Below, one piece after another: positions 25,270 to 44,130 of a stretch of 51,133 nt of DNA (its first letter is position 1; each line of letters starts with the position of its first letter). Below the pieces are notes generated by a model. That model saw only the letters and a program-made list of their open reading frames with translations. It did not search any database and was not told the DNA's origin. The stretch comes from a virus (taxonomy: Duplodnaviria; Caudoviricetes). Location: positions 1-51,133 of IMG/VR virus record IMGVR_UViG_3300020003_000002; one strand, written 5' to 3'. A program made the position numbers and the translations under genes.

Positions 25270-25605
25270 CTAGGCCTTGGCTGCCTTGGCCGCGGCCTTG
25301 TCGGCTGCCGCCTGCTCCGCTTCGGCCTTCTTCGCCGCAGCCTCGGCCGCTTCCATCTGCTGCTTGGCAGCTTCGGCCGCGGCCTTCTCCTCTTCGGTCT
25401 CGGCCTTGTCGACCGCCTTGGCTTCGCCGGAGTCAAGCCATTCGGCGTACTCCCGCCGGACGAGGCTGGCCACGTTCTCCGGGTCGGCCTCGACCGGCAG
25501 AACAGCGTCCCGGTAGAAGCCGGCCACAGTCCACTTGCCGGTAGCCGGGTCGAGTAGTTTCACAGTTGCGTATGCCACGGTCACCCGGGCTCGGCGCGTG
25601 CTCAT
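25270..25605 (-). CDS. Hypothetical head-module protein with Ala/Lys/Glu-rich tail
   Basis: ATGA-coupled to upstream cement-like gene. Confidence 0.7.
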   Translation of the reverse strand: MSTRRARVTVAYATVKLLDPATGKWTVAGFYRDAVLPVEADPENVASLVRREYAEWLDSGEAKAVDKAETEEEKAAAEAAKQQMEAAEAAAKKAEAEQAAADKAAAKAAKA

Positions 25606-25997
25606 GTGTGCATAACCACCTTTACGACGTTGCCGGCAGCGGTGGTTAGCGCGGTGCCGACGATCTTCTCGAACGTGTTGGCGCCGATGGTCGTAACCAC
25701 CCCGGCCGCACCGGCGACCACCTTTGCGCCAGCGGTGATGGCACCGCTGGACGTGATGCTCAATACCGGGCCGAACATGAGCGCCCTGACCGGCGCGGCA
25801 CTGGCTGCACCGGCGAGCGCGTAGCCGACCACCGCAACGGATGCGGCGCCGGCTGGACCGAGAGTGCCATCACCACTGACCTCGAGCAGTTGGCCGTCGG
25901 TGATGGTGGCCGAAGCGGTCGAGCCGCCGTAGATGTGCTCGAAGCCTTCGTGCTGATGGTTGGCGTTACGAAGAATCGACGCCGAGATGACGGGCAT
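25602..25997 (-). CDS. Capsid decoration/cement-like protein 2 (DUF2190-like)
   Basis: VVGYA...SGAITAGAKVVAGAAGVV...IVGTALTTAA. Confidence 0.75.
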   Translation of the reverse strand: MPVISASILRNANHQHEGFEHIYGGSTASATITDGQLLEVSGDGTLGPAGAASVAVVGYALAGAASAAPVRALMFGPVLSITSSGAITAGAKVVAGAAGVVTTIGANTFEKIVGTALTTAAGNVVKVVMHT

Positions 25998-25998
25998 G

Positions 25999-26940
25999 TC
26001 AGCTCACCACACCGGTGATCTCGTAGCCCGCGCCGACTTCCTGCACGTACGGGACCGTCAGGCGACGGGCCTGCAGATCCCAGGCGTCCTGGCCCTCCTT
26101 ACGGATCGGCTTGACCTCAACGCCCGCGAAGCCACCCATCTGGGCGTATCCGGGTGCGCTGCCCGTCTCGTCGGCCATGCCGCCGAGTTGGGTGGAGTCC
26201 AGGATCCACGCCCTAGTGGCGACCGGCAGGTTAGGCGTCTTGACGACCGTCAAGTTCGCCACCGTCTCAATCATGCCGGTGTAGATCGGGTTGTCTGACG
26301 TCTCCCGCTTGCGCAACTGGGCGATGGCGTCGTTGAGCATCAGGTACGTGTACCCCTTCGGCGACACGACCAGCGTGTCCGCCTTGAAGCCCTGGTTGAG
26401 ATCCTCCATGAACTGAATCCCGAGAAGGATGTCATCCAACGGTTTGCGGTTGGCGGGGGTCGCGTTATCCCACGACCCGGCCGTGGCCACCTCTGCGGTG
26501 ATCGCCGTGCCGATGGCGGCCATGGCGACCGTGTCCACCTGCTTGATGACCGTGGTGGCAACCTTGGTCAGTGCCCGGTCGACGGCCGACATCGGGTAGG
26601 ACTTGCGGGTGATCTCCTCATCGGTCAAAAGAGCTTTTTGGCCCCATTTCTGAATTGCCGCGATACCGGCGGTGCCGGTACCCAGGTTGGCGTACGGGTA
26701 TTCAGACCCGGCCGACACGGCCTCGACGGTCCGGTCGGAGATGAACGGCTCGGTCATGTCATACAAAACCGCGCCGCCCGAGGCCCGCGAACGGTCCTTG
26801 AGCAGCTGGTCGGCCACGAAGCGCAGATCCGTCCAGTCCCTGAGTCGCCGCTGGATACGGGTCGGGTCCGAGAGGAACCGACTGATGGTGAGCAGGTCGC
26901 CCGAAAGGGTCGGGGCGGCTGCCGGGAATGCGTAAGGCAT
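25999..26940 (-). CDS. Major capsid protein
   Basis: 313 aa after protease/cement; AGSEYP...KWG...TDE, DTLVVSP; AAAGGAG RBS. Confidence 0.9.
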   Translation of the reverse strand: MPYAFPAAAPTLSGDLLTISRFLSDPTRIQRRLRDWTDLRFVADQLLKDRSRASGGAVLYDMTEPFISDRTVEAVSAGSEYPYANLGTGTAGIAAIQKWGQKALLTDEEITRKSYPMSAVDRALTKVATTVIKQVDTVAMAAIGTAITAEVATAGSWDNATPANRKPLDDILLGIQFMEDLNQGFKADTLVVSPKGYTYLMLNDAIAQLRKRETSDNPIYTGMIETVANLTVVKTPNLPVATRAWILDSTQLGGMADETGSAPGYAQMGGFAGVEVKPIRKEGQDAWDLQARRLTVPYVQEVGAGYEITGVVS

Positions 26941-26961: not shown

Positions 26962-27348
26962 TTACCGGCGGCCCTGGACGCGCAGCTTGAGCGGGGAGCC
27001 CGCAGCTGTCGTCACGGCCGTGCCGATGAGGCTGCCAAGGGCCGCCGCCGTACCGACGGTGGCAGTTTTTACCTGGCCGGATGCGTCAGTGACAACACCG
27101 GCAAGAACGGTGATGGCACCTGACGCGACGAGTTCGTGGATGCAGCCATCCAGCGGCCACACGGTGAGCTTCGCGCCGGACGCGGCGTCGTGGGCGGCCA
27201 CGCCGGCCACGACAAGAGAGTCAGCGCCGGAGACGGTCACCGTGCTCGCAGCGGACCAGACGACGACGTTGCCCCCGGCGACAACGCCGCCAGTGGTGAC
27301 CGTGAACGGCTCAGCGCCGCCGGTGTAGACGGGCGTGTAATCAGCCAC
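26962..27348 (-). CDS. Capsid decoration/cement-like protein 1 (DUF2190-like)
   Basis: MADYTPVY...AGVAAHDAASG...SGAITVLAGV...IGTAVTTAA. Confidence 0.8.
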   Translation of the reverse strand: MADYTPVYTGGAEPFTVTTGGVVAGGNVVVWSAASTVTVSGADSLVVAGVAAHDAASGAKLTVWPLDGCIHELVASGAITVLAGVVTDASGQVKTATVGTAAALGSLIGTAVTTAAGSPLKLRVQGRR

Positions 27349-28519
27349 GGTTGGCCGCCCGTCGGGTCGGGTCGCTTAGGCGGGCAATCTCCCGGTCGAG
27401 TTCGTCCTCTTCCACTTCGCCGTCGCCGGCGTAACCCGACGCCGCGACCGGGATCATGTTGCGCTGCATGCTGGAGATCGCTTCGCGGGCGCCCTCCGGG
27501 TCCAACTTCCAGTTGTGCGTCCAGTAGTCCTTACGGGCTGGGGCGAACTTGCCGTCCTTAATGGCCTGGATGATGATCTGATCCGCCTCGTCGTCACGCC
27601 GACGCTGCGCATCGGCCTCAAGACGCTTGATGCGCTCCTGGTTCTCTTCCCAGGCCGACGCCTCAACCCTGATCATGCTGTCGGCGAACTTCTCGGGCCT
27701 GCGCGCAGACGCCGCTACGGGCACGGCTTCGGGTGCCGTCTCGGGCGTCTCGGCCTTCGGGACGAAGCCGGCCTTCGCAAGAGCGGCCATCACCTCGTCA
27801 TCTGTGAGGTCGTCGAGACCGACAGCCTCTCGGAACTTTGCCGGATCCATGCCGGTCTCCGTTTCTGTGGGTGGGACAACCGCCTCGTCGGCGGGGTCTG
27901 GGGTGGGCGTAGGCCCGGGGATGAACGCCTCGACCGGATCGGGCTCGATGGTCAGAACGGGTTCGATCACTCCGCCCTGCGCCCGAGCGGGAACCTGCGG
28001 CGGAGTGGCCGGGTCGTCCTCGGGCGCAGAGGCAAACAGCGGGGTCGCCGACGACGCGGCCAAAGCGTTCTGCAGATCGGCCAGGGACTTGATGTTGCGT
28101 ACGGCGGGCGGCACCGCACCCAGGAACGCCAGCGCCGACAAGGTCAGCGAGTATTCGCGGCCGTCGTGCTCGACGTTCTGCCAGCCCTGCACGCTGCGGT
28201 TCGGCCAGCGCGACGGAGCCGACGCAGCCAGCCAGCCGGGCATGCCGACGATGTCTCCGAGCAGGACCGGGCCGCGGTCGTCCTCGAGGTAGCGGATGTT
28301 CGTCACCGACCCGAACGTCGGCTCGCCGTCGTTGAAGCGACTGTCCTTGTGGCCGAGTCTGATCGGCACCGCCTGGCCGCCGGACGCGGTGTAGAAGTCG
28401 GCCGCGTCGCGCAGCATCTCGGCGGTGAAGTTGCCGTCGCCAACCGTCACCGACCACGCACCGGGGCGGGCGAGCTCCACGCCGAGCATCTGGGCTGGGG
28501 CTGTCAGGGCGCGCGTCAT
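27341..28519 (-). CDS. Prohead protease-scaffold fusion (Mu gpI-like)
   Basis: IRLGH, WPNRS, LAFLGAVPPAV; C-terminal AIKDGKFAPA scaffold. Confidence 0.85.
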   Translation of the reverse strand: MTRALTAPAQMLGVELARPGAWSVTVGDGNFTAEMLRDAADFYTASGGQAVPIRLGHKDSRFNDGEPTFGSVTNIRYLEDDRGPVLLGDIVGMPGWLAASAPSRWPNRSVQGWQNVEHDGREYSLTLSALAFLGAVPPAVRNIKSLADLQNALAASSATPLFASAPEDDPATPPQVPARAQGGVIEPVLTIEPDPVEAFIPGPTPTPDPADEAVVPPTETETGMDPAKFREAVGLDDLTDDEVMAALAKAGFVPKAETPETAPEAVPVAASARRPEKFADSMIRVEASAWEENQERIKRLEADAQRRRDDEADQIIIQAIKDGKFAPARKDYWTHNWKLDPEGAREAISSMQRNMIPVAASGYAGDGEVEEDELDREIARLSDPTRRAANRG

Positions 28520-28569: not shown

Positions 28570-29367
28570 TTAGAAGAGTCGGCCGGGAAGTGGTGGCTTA
28601 CCCGTAACGGCCAGCGCGACGTGGTAAGACCAGTCCTCCTGGCGGGTCCGCGCATTCTTCGAGAAGTTGCAGAACAGATGAGCCAGCGCCACGTTCGTCC
28701 AGACGTGCCCGGGGCAACCGGGCTCGTTGAACGGAATGATGTGGTCGAGGCTCGCCATCATGGGAGCGCGACCGGCGAGGGTCTTGTCGACGGGAAGCCT
28801 GCACAGATGACAAACCCAGCCGTCGCGCTCGAAGACCGCCCAGCGGGAGAATTGTTCAGCGGGTAGCGACTCCATGCGGGCTCGTCGGACGACTTGATTC
28901 GCCATCGCGGTGCAACTGTTGGTGCAATGGCGCTTGTTGTAGCGCGCCTCATTCGGGATCGGCTTGCCGCAGTACTCGCAGGCCCGGTTGGCGAAGTACT
29001 CGGCGCTGCCCGGAAACATGCGCTCACGCCGTTCGCACCGCTCACCGCAGTACCGACGTCCAGCCTTAACATCCACCAGCGCGGCCCCACAATGAGCGCA
29101 GGCCACGTGTCGAATATAGGGGGCGACGACGCCCCTCCGGCGACGCTTGGTCGCCGCCGACGCGCACAGCGGCGAGCAGTGCAACTGGTGGCGGTTACGG
29201 TCAGGCGGAAGCGGCACGCTGCAGACTTGGCAGTCCGCGGCGCCATACGGGACGCCCGGGTGCTTCCGGTTCCACATGTAGCACCGGTTGCAACAAGTGA
29301 CCTGCTTCTGTGGGTACCGCGGCGTGAATTGCCCATGGCAAACCACGCACACCTTAGGCTGGTGCAC
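28570..29367 (-). CDS. Free-standing HNH endonuclease with Zn-ribbon repeats
   Basis: VFERDGWVCHLC...SLDHIIP...GHVWTNVALAHLFCNFSK. Confidence 0.9.
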   Translation of the reverse strand: MHQPKVCVVCHGQFTPRYPQKQVTCCNRCYMWNRKHPGVPYGAADCQVCSVPLPPDRNRHQLHCSPLCASAATKRRRRGVVAPYIRHVACAHCGAALVDVKAGRRYCGERCERRERMFPGSAEYFANRACEYCGKPIPNEARYNKRHCTNSCTAMANQVVRRARMESLPAEQFSRWAVFERDGWVCHLCRLPVDKTLAGRAPMMASLDHIIPFNEPGCPGHVWTNVALAHLFCNFSKNARTRQEDWSYHVALAVTGKPPLPGRLF

Positions 29368-29434: not shown

Positions 29435-32400
29435 CTAGCCAGGACCGAGCGGGTTCGACCCCTTACGCTCGCCGGACCAGATGCCGAAGACCTCCCAAAA
29501 CCACTTACTGGCGAAGATCTTCGCTTTATGCACTCCGACATGCTCTGTCAGCAGCGCTACGAGCGTGGTCCAGGGCGTTGGCGAGCCTCGCCAACGCATC
29601 AACCCAGGACCCTTTGTCCAGTAGTGGTGCAGTTCGTCGTTTCCGGGTGTGACGTCGTGCCCGGCGGCGGCGCGAACGCGGCTAGCCTTCTTCACCATCG
29701 CCGCAGTCGGTGCCAGTTCGTCGATCTGCTCCGGTGTGAAGCCCAACGACCGCAGCCGTGCCCGCTTCTGGCGGATGGTGAGACCGGAAAGGTCCGGTAC
29801 AACCCCGTGATACGCAGCGGTGCCGTAAGACGGAGTAGTGTCCACGACCCACTTCGCGACGTCCATATGCTCGGCGAGGCTGTTCCCGGTCATCTTGCCC
29901 GGCGCCACCTTCTTGGCGGCGGCGGGTGTGCCGGTGGCCTTGCGGGGGGCGGCGGGCCGTGGTCGGGGTGAGGGGTCCTCGGCCGGTGGCGGAAGCTCGT
30001 GCGTTGCGGCTTTCGGGCTAGGCTCACGGACGATCAAGGCCGACCGGTTAAACACGAGGACTTCGTCCTCAAGGCTTCCTTCGATGCGCATTGCGTCGAA
30101 GCCGCGAGATGCCACATACCGACCCAGATCGGAGAACACGCGGTGTTCATCACTGTCGGGATCGAGGCCGGCGAGGAAGGTCTTGTGCTCCTCTTTCAAT
30201 TCGCGCCAGTCCGCGACTCGCGCATCGGGGGGGAGCGCCATCCGAATCGGATTCGGCCCGTATCGGCGGGCGGTGTGCAACTGCCGGGACGTGTAGATAC
30301 CACTGCCCCACACCCCAGTAGGCAGGTAGGTGTCACCAGCCCGCAGCCGGTCGGCGAAATCGTCTTCGTTTCCTCCCGCGCTGCCCAGCGCGAACACGCC
30401 TCGATAGAGCGGCAGGTGGCCATCGGCCACCAAGCGGTCAAACTCGGCAACGCTGACTACGCGCGGCGGCCGGTCGAAGCCCTGCCGCTCGGCGATTGCG
30501 AACGCGACCTCATCGCCATGAGGGCCTGCGATCTGGCCATATGAGCCCTCGCTCGTGCGGCGACTGGTTGCTGTCGCTAGCGCCGAACTGGCCACCTCGG
30601 CGGTAGCACCATCGCCGATGAGATCGGAACCGTTGACTCTAGCCGCTACGCCGGGTGTGCCGGTGGCCTTGCGGGGGGTGGCCTTCTTGGCCGGTGCCCG
30701 CTTCGCCGGCGGCTTCCCGCCCCGCTCCTTGCGTGCCCACTGCGCGGCCTCGTCCGGACTGGCCTCCTCGACGACGGCCTTGCTGAGCCGCACCTTCTCG
30801 CCGTCACGGTCGTACTCGTAGCCGGGCCGCACCACGTGCACAACCGCAGACGCCTTCGTGCCGGCGATCATCTGATGCCGCGTCCGGTCGAAAGACTCCA
30901 CCCCGCCGGCCGAGCCAGTCGGGGTCAAGCCGTGGTCCTTCGCAATGTCGGCGCGAACCTTGTCGACCTTGCGGCGATCACCGGTCGCCACCGCGGCGAG
31001 TAGCCGGTCCACCACATCGTCGGGTGCCCCGCCCTGACGCGCAGCCTTCAGCCGGCGCTCCACCACGACCCGATCGGCTTCGCTGTCGAGAAGCTCATCC
31101 ACCTCGGCGAGGGTGTCGGCGACAGTGCGGGCCTTGTCGATCTGAGACTGGCGGTCGGTGGCGTCCTTCTGAAGGCCGCGGTTCTTCTCGGTCCTTGCCC
31201 ACTGCGCCAGCCGTGGCTCGCCGTTGGCCTCAGCCCATTTCTCCATCTCGGCAAGCGAGTCGAAGCGCTGCACCAGCGCGCCGCGTTTGCCGTTCTCGTC
31301 CTCGCGGAACAAGGCCGGGTGGCCGTCCTTGTCGCGGTAGACGGCCACATCCAGGTCGCGGAGGGACTTCGGCAGCGGGCGGGGCGAGGCATCACCGAAC
31401 GAGATTGCGTGCTTGTCCTGGCCGCCAACGTGAATCGCGGCGTCCCGATCCGCCTGGGTGAGTGCCTTCTGGTTTGACTGCGGCACGACAACCGGATCGC
31501 CCGGCCCGTCATAGTCGCCGCGATTCATCCGCGTCAACGCCGCATCAACGTCGCTGCGTGGAAGATCACCCAGCTTGCGGCGAAGATCCGACAGCATCAC
31601 GTGGTCGGTGCCGACCTCGCGGTACGCCGCCCGGATCCGGTTCTCGACCTCGATCTCGCGGATCTTCGCCGCATCCGGCTTACCCTGCAGGGTGAACTTC
31701 GCCGACGGCTTGCCCTGCTCCCGCTTGCCCTTCGTCGCGTCGCGGACGTAGTCGAGAAGCTGCTTCTCGATCTCGTCAGCGGGAGCGCCGCGGCGAACCG
31801 TCAGACCGAGATTCTTCGTCGCCACCGTACGCAGGTTGTCGCGGGTGAAACCCTGGCCCTTCAGCGGCTGATCGCCGCCCTCACCCCGCGACCACTGCTG
31901 CAACGCGTTCATCACCCGGCCGAAGACGGTGCGGAACTCGCCGGTCTTCGGGTTACGGGGGTGCTTGATGTTGAAGTCGGGTCCGGCCTTGGCCTGCACA
32001 ACGCCGGTGAACTCGGCGATAACGGCGGCGAGTGCCTCCGTTACCTCGTCGAATTGCCCCGATTCGTCGTCGTCATAGACGTCAATGTCACCAGCGCTGC
32101 CAGCGCTCAGTGCTTTTGGGCCAGCATCACCGGACGCGTAGACCGCCGACCCCTCGCCATACTCGGCCGACTCGTTCGGCTCGGTTGGGGTACCGAAGCC
32201 CCCGCCATCCGCCGGCTCGCGGACCGTGTCTTTGTCCTTCGGCGGCAGACCGTACTGCTGGCGCGTGGACTGCTCCAACACCTCGTCGGCCTGAATCACG
32301 CCCGCGTCGATCAGCAGCTTGATCGCCTGCGCCGTAGCCGCCTGACGTGAGCCGATCTCGTCGAAGCAGATCCGTGGGGCCGGCTCCTCCGGACCCCAGT

Positions 32401-33448
32401 TGGCGTCCACAAGGTCTTCGACGATGTGCATGCTGGCCGTGCCGGCGATTTGCTGCGCAAGGGTCTGTAGCGACAGCGTGAAGAAATCGGCAAACGTCGT
32501 ACCCAGCGCGTAGGAACCATGCGACTGGGTGTCCAGGTTCAGAAAGTGAGCCAACACAGCACGGGCGATCTGCTCGTCGTGATACTTCACCGCAGGCAAC
32601 GCGTCAGGCAGCTGACCCTCGACGCCCATCAGGCGCAACTTGGCAGTGTTCGGGATCGCCGCGCCCGCCGCCTCACCGGCCCGCAGCGAGGTCGTAAGGG
32701 CCAGGCCTTTCGCCAGATCCTGCTCTTCTTCGGCGGCCTCATAGACCGGGATGCCCATGCCGTTGCGTTCGATCGTCTGGGCCTGGACGCGGAGCAGCCG
32801 GTCCTTGATCAACCAATTTTTGTACGCCTGACGCAGGACGCTGCGCCCGAGCCAGTTGCCGCCCTCTTTCTTGTAGACGTAGGCGACCAGATGGCGGACT
32901 GGGATCGGCTTCTGCGGACCACGCTGATCCATCGTGCCCAGTTGGGTGATCGAGATCAGCCCGCCGTCACGCGCCACGTCGATCTGCTCGATCGTGCGCG
33001 GCATCCGCGGGCTCAGCTTGCCAAGGTGCGCCTCCGTGCCCGCCTTGTTGACCCGGTACACCTGCTCGAAGTACATGTGGCCGAAGGGAAGCATCAGCAA
33101 CGCCAGCTCGAGATGCTCCAACCAGCTGAAGCGGTCCTTCGTCCTCGGCGGCGGCTTCGGATTCTGACCCACGATCGGCAGTCCAAGATCGTCGGCAACG
33201 AACTTGACAACCTCATCCCGCGCACCAGCCGGGTCAAGCCGCCACGGAGTGCGAAGCACCGGACGGGTAACCGCCTCCAACACCGACCCGACCTGGGCGT
33301 CTTGAGTTCTCATGGCGTTGTAGACCTTGACCGACATCGGCCACTGCAGTTCCAGCGTGTCCTCGTCCGGGTCGTGCTGCCACCACGCGTTGGTGGTGCC
33401 GTAGGACGGGGTGACGTAGCCGATCTCTCGGGTGGACGGGGCGGTCAT
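29435..33448 (-). CDS. Portal protein (DUF935/Mu gp29-like) fused to an approximately 900-aa multidomain extension including an ADP-ribosyltransferase-like domain
   Basis: Portal motifs GRSVLRQAY, ERNGMGIP, YHDEQIARAVLAHFL, GSYALG; uninterrupted frame to 29435; GGGGAGG RBS before ATG 33448. Confidence 0.88.
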   Translation of the reverse strand: MTAPSTREIGYVTPSYGTTNAWWQHDPDEDTLELQWPMSVKVYNAMRTQDAQVGSVLEAVTRPVLRTPWRLDPAGARDEVVKFVADDLGLPIVGQNPKPPPRTKDRFSWLEHLELALLMLPFGHMYFEQVYRVNKAGTEAHLGKLSPRMPRTIEQIDVARDGGLISITQLGTMDQRGPQKPIPVRHLVAYVYKKEGGNWLGRSVLRQAYKNWLIKDRLLRVQAQTIERNGMGIPVYEAAEEEQDLAKGLALTTSLRAGEAAGAAIPNTAKLRLMGVEGQLPDALPAVKYHDEQIARAVLAHFLNLDTQSHGSYALGTTFADFFTLSLQTLAQQIAGTASMHIVEDLVDANWGPEEPAPRICFDEIGSRQAATAQAIKLLIDAGVIQADEVLEQSTRQQYGLPPKDKDTVREPADGGGFGTPTEPNESAEYGEGSAVYASGDAGPKALSAGSAGDIDVYDDDESGQFDEVTEALAAVIAEFTGVVQAKAGPDFNIKHPRNPKTGEFRTVFGRVMNALQQWSRGEGGDQPLKGQGFTRDNLRTVATKNLGLTVRRGAPADEIEKQLLDYVRDATKGKREQGKPSAKFTLQGKPDAAKIREIEVENRIRAAYREVGTDHVMLSDLRRKLGDLPRSDVDAALTRMNRGDYDGPGDPVVVPQSNQKALTQADRDAAIHVGGQDKHAISFGDASPRPLPKSLRDLDVAVYRDKDGHPALFREDENGKRGALVQRFDSLAEMEKWAEANGEPRLAQWARTEKNRGLQKDATDRQSQIDKARTVADTLAEVDELLDSEADRVVVERRLKAARQGGAPDDVVDRLLAAVATGDRRKVDKVRADIAKDHGLTPTGSAGGVESFDRTRHQMIAGTKASAVVHVVRPGYEYDRDGEKVRLSKAVVEEASPDEAAQWARKERGGKPPAKRAPAKKATPRKATGTPGVAARVNGSDLIGDGATAEVASSALATATSRRTSEGSYGQIAGPHGDEVAFAIAERQGFDRPPRVVSVAEFDRLVADGHLPLYRGVFALGSAGGNEDDFADRLRAGDTYLPTGVWGSGIYTSRQLHTARRYGPNPIRMALPPDARVADWRELKEEHKTFLAGLDPDSDEHRVFSDLGRYVASRGFDAMRIEGSLEDEVLVFNRSALIVREPSPKAATHELPPPAEDPSPRPRPAAPRKATGTPAAAKKVAPGKMTGNSLAEHMDVAKWVVDTTPSYGTAAYHGVVPDLSGLTIRQKRARLRSLGFTPEQIDELAPTAAMVKKASRVRAAAGHDVTPGNDELHHYWTKGPGLMRWRGSPTPWTTLVALLTEHVGVHKAKIFASKWFWEVFGIWSGERKGSNPLGPG
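29923..30678. repeat. 27-bp perfect direct repeat pair (29923-29949 and 30652-30678)
   Basis: CGGGTGTGCCGGTGGCCTTGCGGGGGG twice, 729 bp apart; encodes PRKATGTP. Confidence 0.95.
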
Positions 33449-33466: not shown

Positions 33467-33676
33467 ATGAGTGAAAGCAACGGGCTGCTGCCCGTTTGGA
33501 AATGGGGCCACACACGCGAGGTGGCGTACGAGGACTTCCTCGTTCTCAACCCGATCGCCGTGGCACTAATCGCGCCACTCGCAGACCTCGGCGACGAGCA
33601 CGCCGAGTTGCGTGAGTGGGCTCGGACTAAACTCGCGACTTCGCCGCGCACGTACGTCAAAATCCAGCCGTCATAA
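33467..33676 (+). CDS. Small opposite-strand hypothetical protein (69 aa) between terL and portal
   Basis: Fills the intergenic gap; TACCCT -10 box 7 nt before ATG; protein-like composition. Confidence 0.55.
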   Translation: MSESNGLLPVWKWGHTREVAYEDFLVLNPIAVALIAPLADLGDEHAELREWARTKLATSPRTYVKIQPS

Positions 33677-35321
33677 GGTCGGAGGTGTTTACGTATCGGT
33701 CCTTGGCGTCGAGGTGCGCCACCATCGGCGGCGGGGCGGGGTGGCGCTGCTCCGGCATCGTCATCGCGGCCTCGAGAGCGAGCACCGCACCGATACCAGC
33801 GTCGATCTTGTCCCTATTCGGACCCTTGGTAAACACATACTTGGTCCGGCCGTCGTCCTCTTCGTCCCGGACCCGGACCTTGCGTTTGTGCATGGCCAAC
33901 ACCTGGGCCGTGAGAACCGGCGAGTTGTCGTGGGTGTAGGCGCCCTCGGCCAAAGCGGTGGAAAACCGGTCGCAGGCCCGCCACATGCGAGTCGGCTGGT
34001 TCGTGTCGAACAGAACCACCTGGTCCTCGCCAAACTCCTCGATCCAGAACTCGATCTCCGTCTGCCACTTCGCCGGATCGCACAGCATCAGCCCGACGTT
34101 GTAGTGGGCGAACGCCTCCGTGACCCGCGCCCGGACATCCGCCCGAGGCACCCGCCACGCCTTGTCGGCGTGCACATGGCGCCGGCCGGTGTCTGGGCGC
34201 TGCCACACCTCGACCACGAACGTGTGCGGCTTCCCGTCGACGATCGTGCAGCCAATCAGCGCCGTGCAGTCATCCGAAATCGACCCGTCGAAGCCGAGCC
34301 CGATGTATGCGCCGGCCGGCACCACGATGTCGGTCCGCTTCAGCGTCTCCCACCGGTTCGTCTCGACCGCTTTACGCCGGTCGTCGCGGTTGTGGTTGAA
34401 AAAGAACCGTTCGGCGTCTTCCCACGGCGTTTCCGGGTCCCGGATGTCCTGCACGAGGCGGTGCACGTCGATCCACCACGCGTCGCCGTAGGCCACCTTG
34501 AGCGCGGCCTTCAGCGTCTCGTCGGAGTCCTCGGGCTTGACCTCCGGCGCCTCGACGGCGTCGTAGTAGATGCCCTGTTGGCCCTCCATGACGGCCTTGT
34601 GGGTGCCCTCGGCGACCGAATTCTCGCCCGGGGCGAACGAATTCGTCGTCTCGTAGCTCCGACCGCCCATTTTCGCGACGTTGCGGCGCAGCGTCCGTGC
34701 CAGCCGCACCCCGCCGTTAGTCGGCAGCCAGAGATGTGTCTCGTCCAGCGTCGCGTCGGTGACCGGTTGGCCCTCACGGGACCCGGCCGACGCCGTGACC
34801 GGCTCCAACTTGCCCGGCCGGTCACGCAGGTAACACCTGGTCAGGCCAACATCTATGCGCAGGTCGTCTGCGGCGGCGCCATCATTGGCGGTGAGCAGCT
34901 CATACAGCACCGAATAGGTGTTATCGGTTTGGTCCTCGGAAACAGCCGCGATCTGCACCCACGGGTTCGGGTCGCCTTTGCGACCCCACGGGCGGCCCAC
35001 CGGCTTGCCCGATGCGTCGAACCCGTCCGGTCGGACGTCGCCGGCCAAGGCCGCGATCGCCTTCGCCGCCTCGACTGGGGACTTGCCCCAGCCCTTCGCC
35101 CGGCGCGAGCAGCCACGGCGGTAAACGAACCGCAGCGTCACCGGATCGAATGTGTACCACTCGATCAGGATCCGGGCTTGCTCGTCGGTGAAAATCAGCG
35201 GCTGTGAATGGTCCCGCGGCGACGGCAGGGCATCGGCCCACCAGTCCAGCAGGCCCCCGCCTCGAGGATTCCAGGCCAGCGAGGGAAGCTCACCCTCGAC
35301 GTCAGGCCCGCACCACGGCAC
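33657..35321 (-). CDS. terL: Terminase large subunit
   Basis: Walker A AKGWGKS, Walker B TLDETH, nuclease GFDGS...D and KIDA. Confidence 0.95.
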   Translation of the reverse strand: MPWCGPDVEGELPSLAWNPRGGGLLDWWADALPSPRDHSQPLIFTDEQARILIEWYTFDPVTLRFVYRRGCSRRAKGWGKSPVEAAKAIAALAGDVRPDGFDASGKPVGRPWGRKGDPNPWVQIAAVSEDQTDNTYSVLYELLTANDGAAADDLRIDVGLTRCYLRDRPGKLEPVTASAGSREGQPVTDATLDETHLWLPTNGGVRLARTLRRNVAKMGGRSYETTNSFAPGENSVAEGTHKAVMEGQQGIYYDAVEAPEVKPEDSDETLKAALKVAYGDAWWIDVHRLVQDIRDPETPWEDAERFFFNHNRDDRRKAVETNRWETLKRTDIVVPAGAYIGLGFDGSISDDCTALIGCTIVDGKPHTFVVEVWQRPDTGRRHVHADKAWRVPRADVRARVTEAFAHYNVGLMLCDPAKWQTEIEFWIEEFGEDQVVLFDTNQPTRMWRACDRFSTALAEGAYTHDNSPVLTAQVLAMHKRKVRVRDEEDDGRTKYVFTKGPNRDKIDAGIGAVLALEAAMTMPEQRHPAPPPMVAHLDAKDRYVNTSDLMTAGF

Positions 35322-43249: not shown

Positions 43250-44130
43250 TCGGTACTCTCCTTGTGTTGGCTAGGAACTCGGTCGACTGCTTTGGCCAGC
43301 AGGTCGAGCGCTCTCAGCAGGTCGTGACGATTCATTCGCGCGACCTGCTCTGCGTTGTAGGGAAAGCGCTCGTCGGTCGTAAGCCGATCAAGGCGCTCAG
43401 CTATTCGGACAAGGTCACCGGTCGCCCGGTCGAACGCCTTCGTTAGATGCATGCGGGTCTTCCTGGGCGGCGCTTTGACCTCTGACGATGGACCCACCTC
43501 CTTGCCGTCCCTCCATTTCTCGTAGACGGGCTTCACCGTCCCCGTCCGATCCATCTCGTCGAGAGCGCGCTGAGCACGCTCTCTCTCTGCCTCGTCGGCA
43601 GCCTCGTCGGTGGCGACGGCATGAACTTGACGAACGCGGCCGAGGGTGGCTGGTGAGACCCCCAGCGCCGTGGCGACAGCGTTTCGCGAATCGAACTGAG
43701 GCAAGTCGTTGTTCCCGGGAACAACGACTTGCCTTCGCCCACCCCGCGCATTTCCCTCGCGCCGAGCCGCCTCCGCTTTGGGCCGCTCCAGTGCCAACAG
43801 TTCGTCACTAAGCGAAGCCAACTCAGACGGTCGCATATCCTCCCGGCAGGTGTTCTCATCTCGCTCTGCCCGCAACGCGGCGGAGACCTCTGCCAGATCG
43901 ACTCGATAGACCGCACGAACTACGTCCTTACCCAGTCGACGCAGGGCGGCAATTCGCCGCCCACCGGCTATGAGGCGATTGTCCGGGCCGAGGACAATCG
44001 GTTGGAGCTGGCCAACATCCGCGATCGACTTCGCAAGTTTGCCGATGTCACCCATCTCTCGCCGATGGCGGCCATCCATACGGACTGACTCGATACGGAC
44101 CAGCACTACCCGCTCATCCACTGGATTCAC
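43246..44130 (-). CDS. ParB N-terminal domain plus HTH protein
   Basis: LAKSI...GQLQPI...LIAGGRR...EN..RED; VATALGVSPATL. Confidence 0.85.
   Translation of the reverse strand: MNPVDERVVLVRIESVRMDGRHRREMGDIGKLAKSIADVGQLQPIVLGPDNRLIAGGRRIAALRRLGKDVVRAVYRVDLAEVSAALRAERDENTCREDMRPSELASLSDELLALERPKAEAARREGNARGGRRQVVVPGNNDLPQFDSRNAVATALGVSPATLGRVRQVHAVATDEAADEAERERAQRALDEMDRTGTVKPVYEKWRDGKEVGPSSEVKAPPRKTRMHLTKAFDRATGDLVRIAERLDRLTTDERFPYNAEQVARMNRHDLLRALDLLAKAVDRVPSQHKESTE

Follow-up and report, generated by a model that had tools for sequence, protein, structure and literature searches.

The window analysed here, the 51,133 nucleotides of IMG/VR record IMGVR_UViG_3300020003_000002 (Duplodnaviria; Caudoviricetes), contains a gene in which a Mu-type phage portal is fused to a long C-terminal extension that includes a domain with a predicted ADP-ribosyltransferase (ART) fold. 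The frame runs without interruption from the portal into the extension, the modules of the extension (the cargo) are shuffled among relatives and several of them resemble known folds, and short words at their boundaries co-vary with the type of head protease. We lean towards a model in which this tail is cut off by the phage's own head protease, stays with the packaged DNA and is ejected, its ART domain then using NAD+ against a host target. What the window adds to published portal-effector fusions is a protease code and two unusual modules. Published systems are described below as far as the partial texts of the cited sources go.

The portal and the cargo share one reading frame

The original prediction held that the frame continues for about 900 aa past the portal motifs, and this is what we find: the portal domain ends near 32246 and is followed by an extension of about 930 residues (927 codons), all within a single stop-free frame whose ATG at 33448 is preceded by a GGGGAGG site. 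The motifs singled out in that prediction are all in place (HPRNPKTGEF at 31963-31934, LYRG at 30409-30398, GSGIYTS at 30307-30287, ARRY at 30271-30260, EVLVFN at 30064-30047 and LHHYWTKGPG at 29632-29603). The portal assignment is secure, with a Portal_Mu score of 206 bits against a cut-off of 23.9 and a terminase gene upstream. G+C content at third codon positions in the extension (0.74-0.88) is like that of the portal part, and the probability of a stop-free extension arising by chance from base composition is about 1e-10, the other two frames holding 22 and 30 stops. A simple pattern search found no internal in-frame ribosome site with a start codon in the gene. Also as predicted, the record lacks a separate MuF gene, PF04233 having no match in the protein or anywhere in the 51-kb record. 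NCBIfam gave zero matches for the 1,337-aa protein, and a PASTA match was discarded because it fell below the cut-off.

Assemblies confirm that the fusion is real. Contigs from 4 runs, representing 2 samples, show zero indels across the gene and no stop after the portal; two contigs cover the whole gene and differ from it at 0 positions, and all 3 substitutions listed are synonymous. Read-level support here means assembled contigs, and the samples may be the record's own source. Loci L001 and L002 are 100% identical to the record and start within the extension, so that they are uninformative on the portal junction. A joint at 29794-30648 in run X3 was not trusted (depth 3, side 26). Among the listed runs that hold the sequence, none is an RNA run. 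The contig-level nature of the data and their possibly shared origin are what could still be said for an assembly or sequencing artefact hiding a stop after the portal. This explanation is largely refuted, and in our judgement extremely improbable, given the 4 runs and the recurrence of cargo-fused portals in 10 other Mu-type loci and in 16 of 28 homologues of the extension (13 with an HK97-type and 3 with a Mu-type portal in the same chain).

In a set of loci gathered through the cargo domains, and hence not free of bias, portal-cargo fusions are found in 11 of 14 Mu-type loci (record included) and 13 of 30 HK97-type loci; in the other 17 of the latter the cargo is a separate gene. The portal of Gordonia phage Easley, about 60% identical to that of the record, is 445 aa long and unfused. 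By eye, the protease of the Easley locus (L076:2412-4951) has a ClpP-like appearance, but its scaffold end is similar to that of the record. Two HK97-type portal-cargo proteins (P0022 and P0027) are interrupted by intein or LAGLIDADG domains.

Boundary words switch with the type of head protease

The original prediction proposed that the portal loads up to 12 copies of an anti-host or anti-defence cargo for co-injection with the DNA. Loading stands, with up to 12 copies provided that all subunits are full length. Co-injection of a covalently attached tail does not, because the portal itself stays in the virion and the tail would first have to be released.

The words at the cargo boundaries point to how this could happen. 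Loci were typed by portal and protease profiles, plus Pfam on 83 downstream open reading frames (ORFs), which gave Peptidase_S78 in 20 loci, an HK97-type capsid alone in 9, and Mu-like_Pro in 6 of the 6 Mu-type genes given. The residue three positions before the G-x-D anchor of the conserved end domain is Ala in 14/14 Mu-type rows and 0/34 HK97-type rows, and is Arg in 31 of the latter (Fisher p 2e-12 for Ala by type, kinship ignored; the counts exclude duplicates, rows lacking the anchor and 5 rows whose type is unknown). Similarly, the linkers between portal and cargo carry VxA[SA][AGS] in 9/9 Mu-type and 0/18 HK97-type cases, while Arg words occur in 17/18 HK97-type linkers and 1/9 Mu-type ones (with seven rows excluded as duplicates, as partial or as split by an intein). 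The Ala word is 30-fold denser in Mu-type linkers than in cargo, where it appears 3 times in 9,658 residues.

The same switch is seen, by eye, in the head proteins themselves. An Ala word follows the protease domain in 13/13 Mu-type precursors, and an Arg word follows the protease in 16/16 Peptidase_S78 precursors and lies at 16/16 capsid junctions. The record's own protease-scaffold protein carries the words LAA↓SS, LFA↓SA, VAA↓SA and VAA↓SG (arrows mark the predicted cut). A third class is formed by XkdF head proteases fused to ART domains, with x-[AT]-K-[ST]-[FY] in 21/21 rows, 19 of them distinct (by eye); two XkdF-protease loci bear a Mu-type portal, and in L068 and L069 the protease abounds in Lys words and the end domain is preceded by LGK↓SA. 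In cultured Gordonia phages, LLA↓AG, ILA↓AG or LQA↓AG stands before the end domain in 3/3 examined, and the tail of the unfused Easley portal has no Ala boundary word. The herpesvirus protease assemblin follows the rule V/L-x-A↓S, and the HK97 protease cleaves after a basic residue. Taken together, the boundary words argue for release by the prohead protease. H57 and S109 of the Mu gpI-type protease are invariant in 13/13 sequences, which makes them candidate catalytic residues.

Kinship does not reduce the pattern to a single event: in a tree of the end domain (43 of 52 rows, 64 columns), a single Mu-type clade was rejected (approximately unbiased test, p 1e-68) and at least 4 changes were forced. 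Module 1 has an acidic leader in front of it whether the cargo is fused or stand-alone, and 15 of 20 stand-alone leaders beat shuffled sequences.

In the window, the substrate word is clear at A1260 and weaker at A438 and A486. On a site matrix whose training sites score 5.9-20.1 bits, A1260 scores best (10.9), followed by A953 (5.9), A438 (3.3) and A486 (-0.2). In the prohead, the cargo is likely to be released by cuts after one or both of A438 and A486 and after A1260, and there is a strong probability, on sequence grounds, that the enzyme is the phage's own head protease. The low scores of both portal-side sites, and the precedent of the N4 virion RNA polymerase, which is packaged unprocessed, would fit a tail, compatible with the wording of the original prediction, that is left uncut and remains on the portal inside the capsid, not injectable, with a role in packaging or DNA retention. 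We consider this improbable, given the protease-matched words at equivalent boundaries in three protease classes and the existence of the cargo as a separate gene in many HK97-type loci and in Gordonia phage Phendrix. Our literature search, thin on subscription journals, found no paper on boundary words switching with protease class or on cleavage of Mu gpH.

The cargo contains a predicted ART domain

The AlphaFold2 model of the domain that the original prediction described as ART-like, built from a 33-sequence alignment, has a predicted local distance difference test (pLDDT) score of 90.9. The rows that Foldseek listed for it are PARPs, relatives of exotoxin A and 6kyf, an anti-CRISPR structure which we take to be an ART itself (best E 3.8e-3). 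In a VIA search, where ART folds likewise dominate the list, the best row came from the pre-ejectosome of cyanophage A4 (chain 9k3a_B, Z 7.2, root-mean-square deviation (rmsd) 5.0, 132 aligned), matched over its residues 1264-1602, and the second was diphtheria toxin (Z 6.9). From the numbering in the A4 paper, this chain is likely gp27. Identity in the fold matches is 12-23%, with Z of at most 7.2. A profile search matched 7rb4 at E 0.001 and aligned its YRG at the same place, Arg included. Among viral models the nearest were unnamed phage proteins, a Microbacterium protease-MuF fusion and a protein of phage GodonK, ART-PolyVal rows coming lower. At moderate scores, model, fold matches and profile match thus bear out the original prediction: residues 965-1148 are predicted to fold as an ART, of the diphtheria-toxin/PARP type.

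Across the 33 members, R1016 is conserved in 33/33, Y1052 in 31/33 and an aromatic residue (Y/F) at 1063 in 33/33, and G1045 and G1050 are strongly conserved. The third catalytic position is variable (E in 11, Q in 7, Y in 4, other residues in 11); the copy in the window retains E1129. Because Glu is kept in only 11/33, R1016 and Y1052 would make better control residues than E1129. The Tyr of strand 2 and the Glu of strand 5 expected of the H-Y-E clade are present as Y1052 and E1129, as judged by alignment and motif likeness, and its strand 1 His is replaced by Arg in 33/33. The triad is R-Y-E and not the H-Y-D of ART-PolyVal (PF18760, Tox-ART-HYD2), whose profile had no match in the query and matched 2/33 members (best E 0.023); an Atlas top cluster that is 20% PF18760 (score 0.93) is a lead only. 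As for the R-S-E (Alt/VIP2) clade, a Tyr stands where the Ser motif is expected, Scabin and SpvB reach Z 3.0 and 2.7, and PF03496 (ADPrib_exo_Tox) has no match in the domain.

On balance we think that the domain may well be an active NAD+ enzyme. With a lower but appreciable likelihood, delivery proceeds as proposed and the ART fold is not a transferase, acting instead as an NAD+ hydrolase or as a binder of NAD+, ADP-ribose or nucleic acid. The variable third position, the Arg in place of His at the first, and the presence of PARP13, TASOR and RES toxins (inactive or NADase ART folds) among the fold matches fit such a role. The conserved Arg, glycines and aromatic residues, the alignment with the YRG of 7rb4 and the E1129 of the query copy speak for a transferase, and mono-ART PARPs are active even though they lack the Glu.

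Of 25 matches to this ART family, 19 are fusions with XkdF head proteases; in Phendrix the family is encoded by the gene that follows the portal. In the XkdF protease-ART fusions (L024:6106-7689, L025:3829-6264 and P0032-P0052), K↓FNPYHD words resemble the start of module 1.

Other modules of the extension are gained and lost as units

The layout of the gene and its neighbours is given in Table 1.

Table 1. Coordinates of the portal-cargo gene, its parts and the neighbouring head genes in the window.
Feature	Position	Strand	Remarks
Whole portal-cargo gene	29435..33448	-	Stop-free frame, 1,337 aa, 145.6 kDa
Mu-type portal domain PF06074 (Portal_Mu)	32246..33328	-	Residues 41-401; Pfam E 9.7e-61; phrog_113 E 1.4e-91
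Acidic linker and leader helix	31991..32245	-	Residues 402-486; predicted protease sites VYA↓SG (A438, 32137-32135) and VQA↓KA (A486, 31993-31991)
Module 1	31679..31990	-	Residues 487-590; basic HPR...GxF head motif and helical part weakly SAP/HEH-like; alignment
Module 2, winged helix	31370..31678	-	Residues 591-693; repeated in many relatives; predicted structure
Module 3	31178..31369	-	Residues 694-757; small alpha/beta domain; no known match (fold search barely probed it)
Modules 4-5, GrpE-like helices and beta domain	30749..31177	-	Residues 758-900; predicted structure
Direct repeat, first copy (ATPRKATGTPG linker)	30649..30682	-	34 bp; upstream of ART domain
ART-fold domain, diphtheria-toxin/PARP type	30005..30556	-	Residues 965-1148; R1016, Y1052, Y1063, E1129; predicted structure
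Direct repeat, second copy	29920..29953	-	34 bp; downstream of ART domain
Module 7	29675..29881	-	Residues 1190-1258; small; found in relatives; no family match
End domain (phrog_6439), conserved	29435..29671	-	77 aa; E 8.5e-13; preceded by predicted site VRA↓AAG (A1260, 29671-29669)
Large terminase	33657..35321	-	phrog_9 E 9e-48; upstream neighbour of the portal-cargo gene
HNH endonuclease gene	28570..29367	-	Between portal-cargo and protease genes; family profile matches
Mu gpI-type prohead protease-scaffold gene	27341..28519	-	Mu-like_Pro match; phrog_3894 E 6e-50
Major capsid protein	25999..26940	-	Family profile matches

The helix-turn-helix-like and GrpE-like modules noted in the original prediction reappear in the predicted structures as winged-helix and GrpE matches, with moderate scores. 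The model of module 2 superposes on the winged helix of Rpa2 (9f2a_C) with VIA Z 8.2 and rmsd 1.7 over 62 aligned residues; calmodulin matches to this module (E about 1e-4) were rejected since its predicted structure fits winged helices. The best SAP likeness of module 1 is to the Ku70 SAP domain (1jjr, E 0.12), and its Pfam matches are inconsistent across 33 members.

For modules 4-5 the top Foldseek rows are GrpE (E 0.036-0.22), and the VIA comparison with 1dkg_B gives Z 7.2 and rmsd 3.9 over 106 aligned residues. The long helix, helical bundle and beta domain of GrpE all appear in the predicted structure, again at moderate scores, and Pfam GrpE matches 1 of 8 members of the family (E 0.0032). 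In GrpE an LRPA word carries the Arg that contacts DnaK; it is found in 0/22 copies of the GrpE-like module. The 'GrpE-like' domain described in phage tail fibres (PMC12625404) is a coiled coil and differs from this module.

The two 34-bp direct repeats that flank the ART domain differ by 2 mismatches and lie 729 bp apart, in frame, and could permit in-frame loss of the ART module. Contigs of runs X7 and X8 lack the winged-helix module, with a net in-frame gap of 312 bases at 31361-31679. The repeat around the ART domain and the in-frame skipping of the winged helix together suggest that modules are gained and lost as units. Module 7 was considered as a look-alike of module 1 and rejected, as comparison revealed no resemblance. 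The end domain occurs in 174 phage records; it has no PDB match under E 0.9, and the Atlas clusters that it matched are all unnamed. PHROGs gave zero matches for six separately searched cargo modules, and tblastn with modules 1-5 found no cultured phage.

Module order and copy number differ among relatives, which also bear VIP2-type ARTs (8/28), Nudix, SAP, Rho-N and papain-fold domains. As in polyvalent proteins, at least two unrelated domains share a chain, in a portal-terminase context, and are shuffled among relatives. Cargo modules are linked to MuF in the relatives P0017 and, by eye, L068. A tandem array at L020:5336-12319, with six ORFs for the same ART domain and one VIP2-type ORF, is reminiscent of a cassette bank. 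In five further loci (L030, L036, L042, L059 and L062), DUF6582 and peptidoglycan-binding modules precede Mu-type and S78 proteases in the protease genes, and are likely further released cargo.

A model for release and delivery of the cargo

The C-terminus of phage portals faces the capsid interior, so the portal ring would bring up to 12 tails into the prohead. PMC12407722 and the A4 pre-ejectosome paper are, in their available parts, consistent with this orientation. The Mu gpI-type protease would then cut after Ala at (V/L/I)-x-A↓(S/A), to yield a portal of 48-53 kDa, a basic cargo of 84 kDa (residues 487-1260, isoelectric point 9.4) and an end domain of 8.6 kDa. The winged helix and module 1 would keep the cargo on the DNA, with which it would be ejected into the next host. 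There, in the first phase of infection and in the manner of T4 Alt, the ART domain would modify a protein or a nucleic acid of the host; more speculatively, the GrpE-like part may engage host DnaK. Cutting of this kind has precedents, since the prohead protease of SPN3US cuts the portal and ejection proteins (PMC10052503) and the lambda connector is also cut by a prohead protease. Given cleavage, retention and ejection of the cargo are fairly likely.

A number of points weigh against this model. The portal-side sites A438 and A486 score below all training sites of the matrix, and A953 reaches the lower end of their range; Ala-rich proteins contain many VxA words, and the word patterns were fixed after part of the data had already been inspected. 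Portal, protease and capsid types travel together, so that the word is not attributable to the protease alone, and the 4/4 independent pairs that change in the same direction give p 0.125, an underpowered test. Prohead proteases usually cut material that is later discarded, and released pieces need not persist. No recognisable immunity gene follows the portal-cargo gene, the next gene encoding an HNH endonuclease, for which an unrecognised immunity role is conceivable. On the structural side, neither the ART nor the GrpE-like model had a PDB fold match at E 0.001, and the ART model did not reach a Z of 8; the third catalytic position of the ART family varies, and the main text of the A4 pre-ejectosome paper, in the parts available, names an ART domain nowhere.

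The same cleavage evidence would also be expected if the tail were cut off and acted in assembly or in the producing cell, whether as a scaffold-like or DNA-organising element, to be degraded or expelled afterwards, or through its ART domain, which would hide portal and terminase from host sensors in late infection. Prohead proteases do destroy scaffolds, Iyer 2022 (PMC9503650) offers counter-immunity as an alternative for head-linked ARTs, and the T7 portal is directed against RelA/SpoT inside infected cells (PMC13483052). Strict sites are, however, as scarce in the cargo as the count above indicates, with several in the scaffold region; the basic cargo directly follows an acidic leader, as in ejected head proteins with propeptides, and the best fold match of the ART model sits in an ejection complex. 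An assembly or late role is therefore, in our view, unlikely, and we retain delivery into the next host as the preferred model.

If this is correct, it would explain how effectors fused to a portal that remains in the virion can be delivered. It would also provide a residue-level cutting rule for Mu gpI-type head proteases, resembling that of assemblin, and make the boundaries of mature cargo readable from sequence across many actinophages. Further additions would be an R-Y-x family of ARTs and a virion module resembling GrpE. Parts of the system are carried by the cultured Gordonia phages Phendrix and GodonK (gp66/67, cargo belonging to this ART family) and Clown and Vivi2 (where the end domain lies on the protease gene), with LTA↓AF among the predicted cut words. 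A bolder version of the model, which we put forward with little confidence, sees the cargo of actinobacterial phages as a portable cassette placed on unrelated portals and proteases, with cut sites repeatedly re-tuned to Ala (Mu-type), Arg (HK97-type) or Lys (XkdF-type). The portal would then act as a 12-copy loader of a released effector that rides on the DNA and includes a previously undescribed R-Y-x clade of ARTs, and a GrpE mimic would bring in host DnaK so that the injected cargo is refolded or protected. The recruitment of host DnaK by a GrpE mimic is speculative in itself.

Comparison with known systems

The idea of a portal-loaded effector is not new, because fusions of ARTs, Nudix, 2H, PBECR and InPase domains to portal or MuF proteins, with injection proposed, have been published (Iyer 2017, PMC5512222; Iyer 2022, PMC9503650). 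The polyvalent proteins described there and the protein in the window are alike in being multidomain late head proteins that combine an ART with DNA-binding modules. They differ in the ART triad, H-Y-D in polyvalent proteins (PMC5512222) and R-Y-E here, and in the metallopeptidase domain, none being seen in the query. For fused assemblin-like domains, Iyer 2017 proposed autoproteolysis and a role in assembly, whereas the present case concerns words at module boundaries whose type follows that of the prohead protease. The supplementary domain lists of these papers may hold the modules described here.

The cargo resembles MuF toxins and SPP1 gp7-type proteins in its position right after the portal and its variable C-terminal enzymes, and differs from MuF toxins in having no MuF domain and no recognisable immunity gene and in riding on the portal. 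Jamet and colleagues reportedly described MuF polymorphic toxins in 2017. MuF-type delivery is described in Zhang 2012 (PMC3482391).

T4 Alt and the other T4 internal proteins, and the ejection proteins of SPN3US (PMC10052503), are likewise ARTs or cargo packaged in the head, with leaders removed by the prohead protease. T4 Alt is, however, an R-S-E ART encoded by a separate gene, unlike the R-Y-E domain fused to the portal here. The T4 and SPN3US proteases cut after Glu and the sites in the window lie after Ala; SPN3US propeptides are N-terminal, whereas in the window the cargo has the portal itself as its carrier on the N-terminal side. Phage Mu gpH and gpI belong to the same Pfam families as the portal and protease of the window (Portal_Mu and Mu-like_Pro). 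Mu gpH is cleaved C-terminally during head maturation, the removed piece being short and having no known enzyme domain. Compared with ARTs of the diphtheria-toxin/PARP type, the query has Arg for His and lacks translocation and receptor domains.

The phage and its likely host

The record represents a linear soil virus with a G+C content of 66% and a completeness rating of 65%. Despite this rating the head module is contiguous from terminase through capsid, in the order terminase, portal, HNH, protease-scaffold, decoration and capsid. Integrase and repressor genes are both encoded, from which the phage is likely temperate. The end domain is present in 2 genome contigs, both from Micromonosporaceae, and the cultured portals nearest to that of the window are from Gordonia phages, suggesting that the host is likely an actinomycete.

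The major capsid gene is flanked by two related cement-like genes, at 25602-25997 and 26962-27348 (phrog_673, PF09956). The HNH-like gene next to the portal-cargo gene is one of six in this phage (12590-13138, 28570-29367, 35759-36475, 36746-37081, 38261-38830 and 45288-45671), and in one relative (L052) a similar HNH-like gene comes after the end domain. Finally, a ParB-like gene holds a perfect 36-bp palindrome at 43699-43734.

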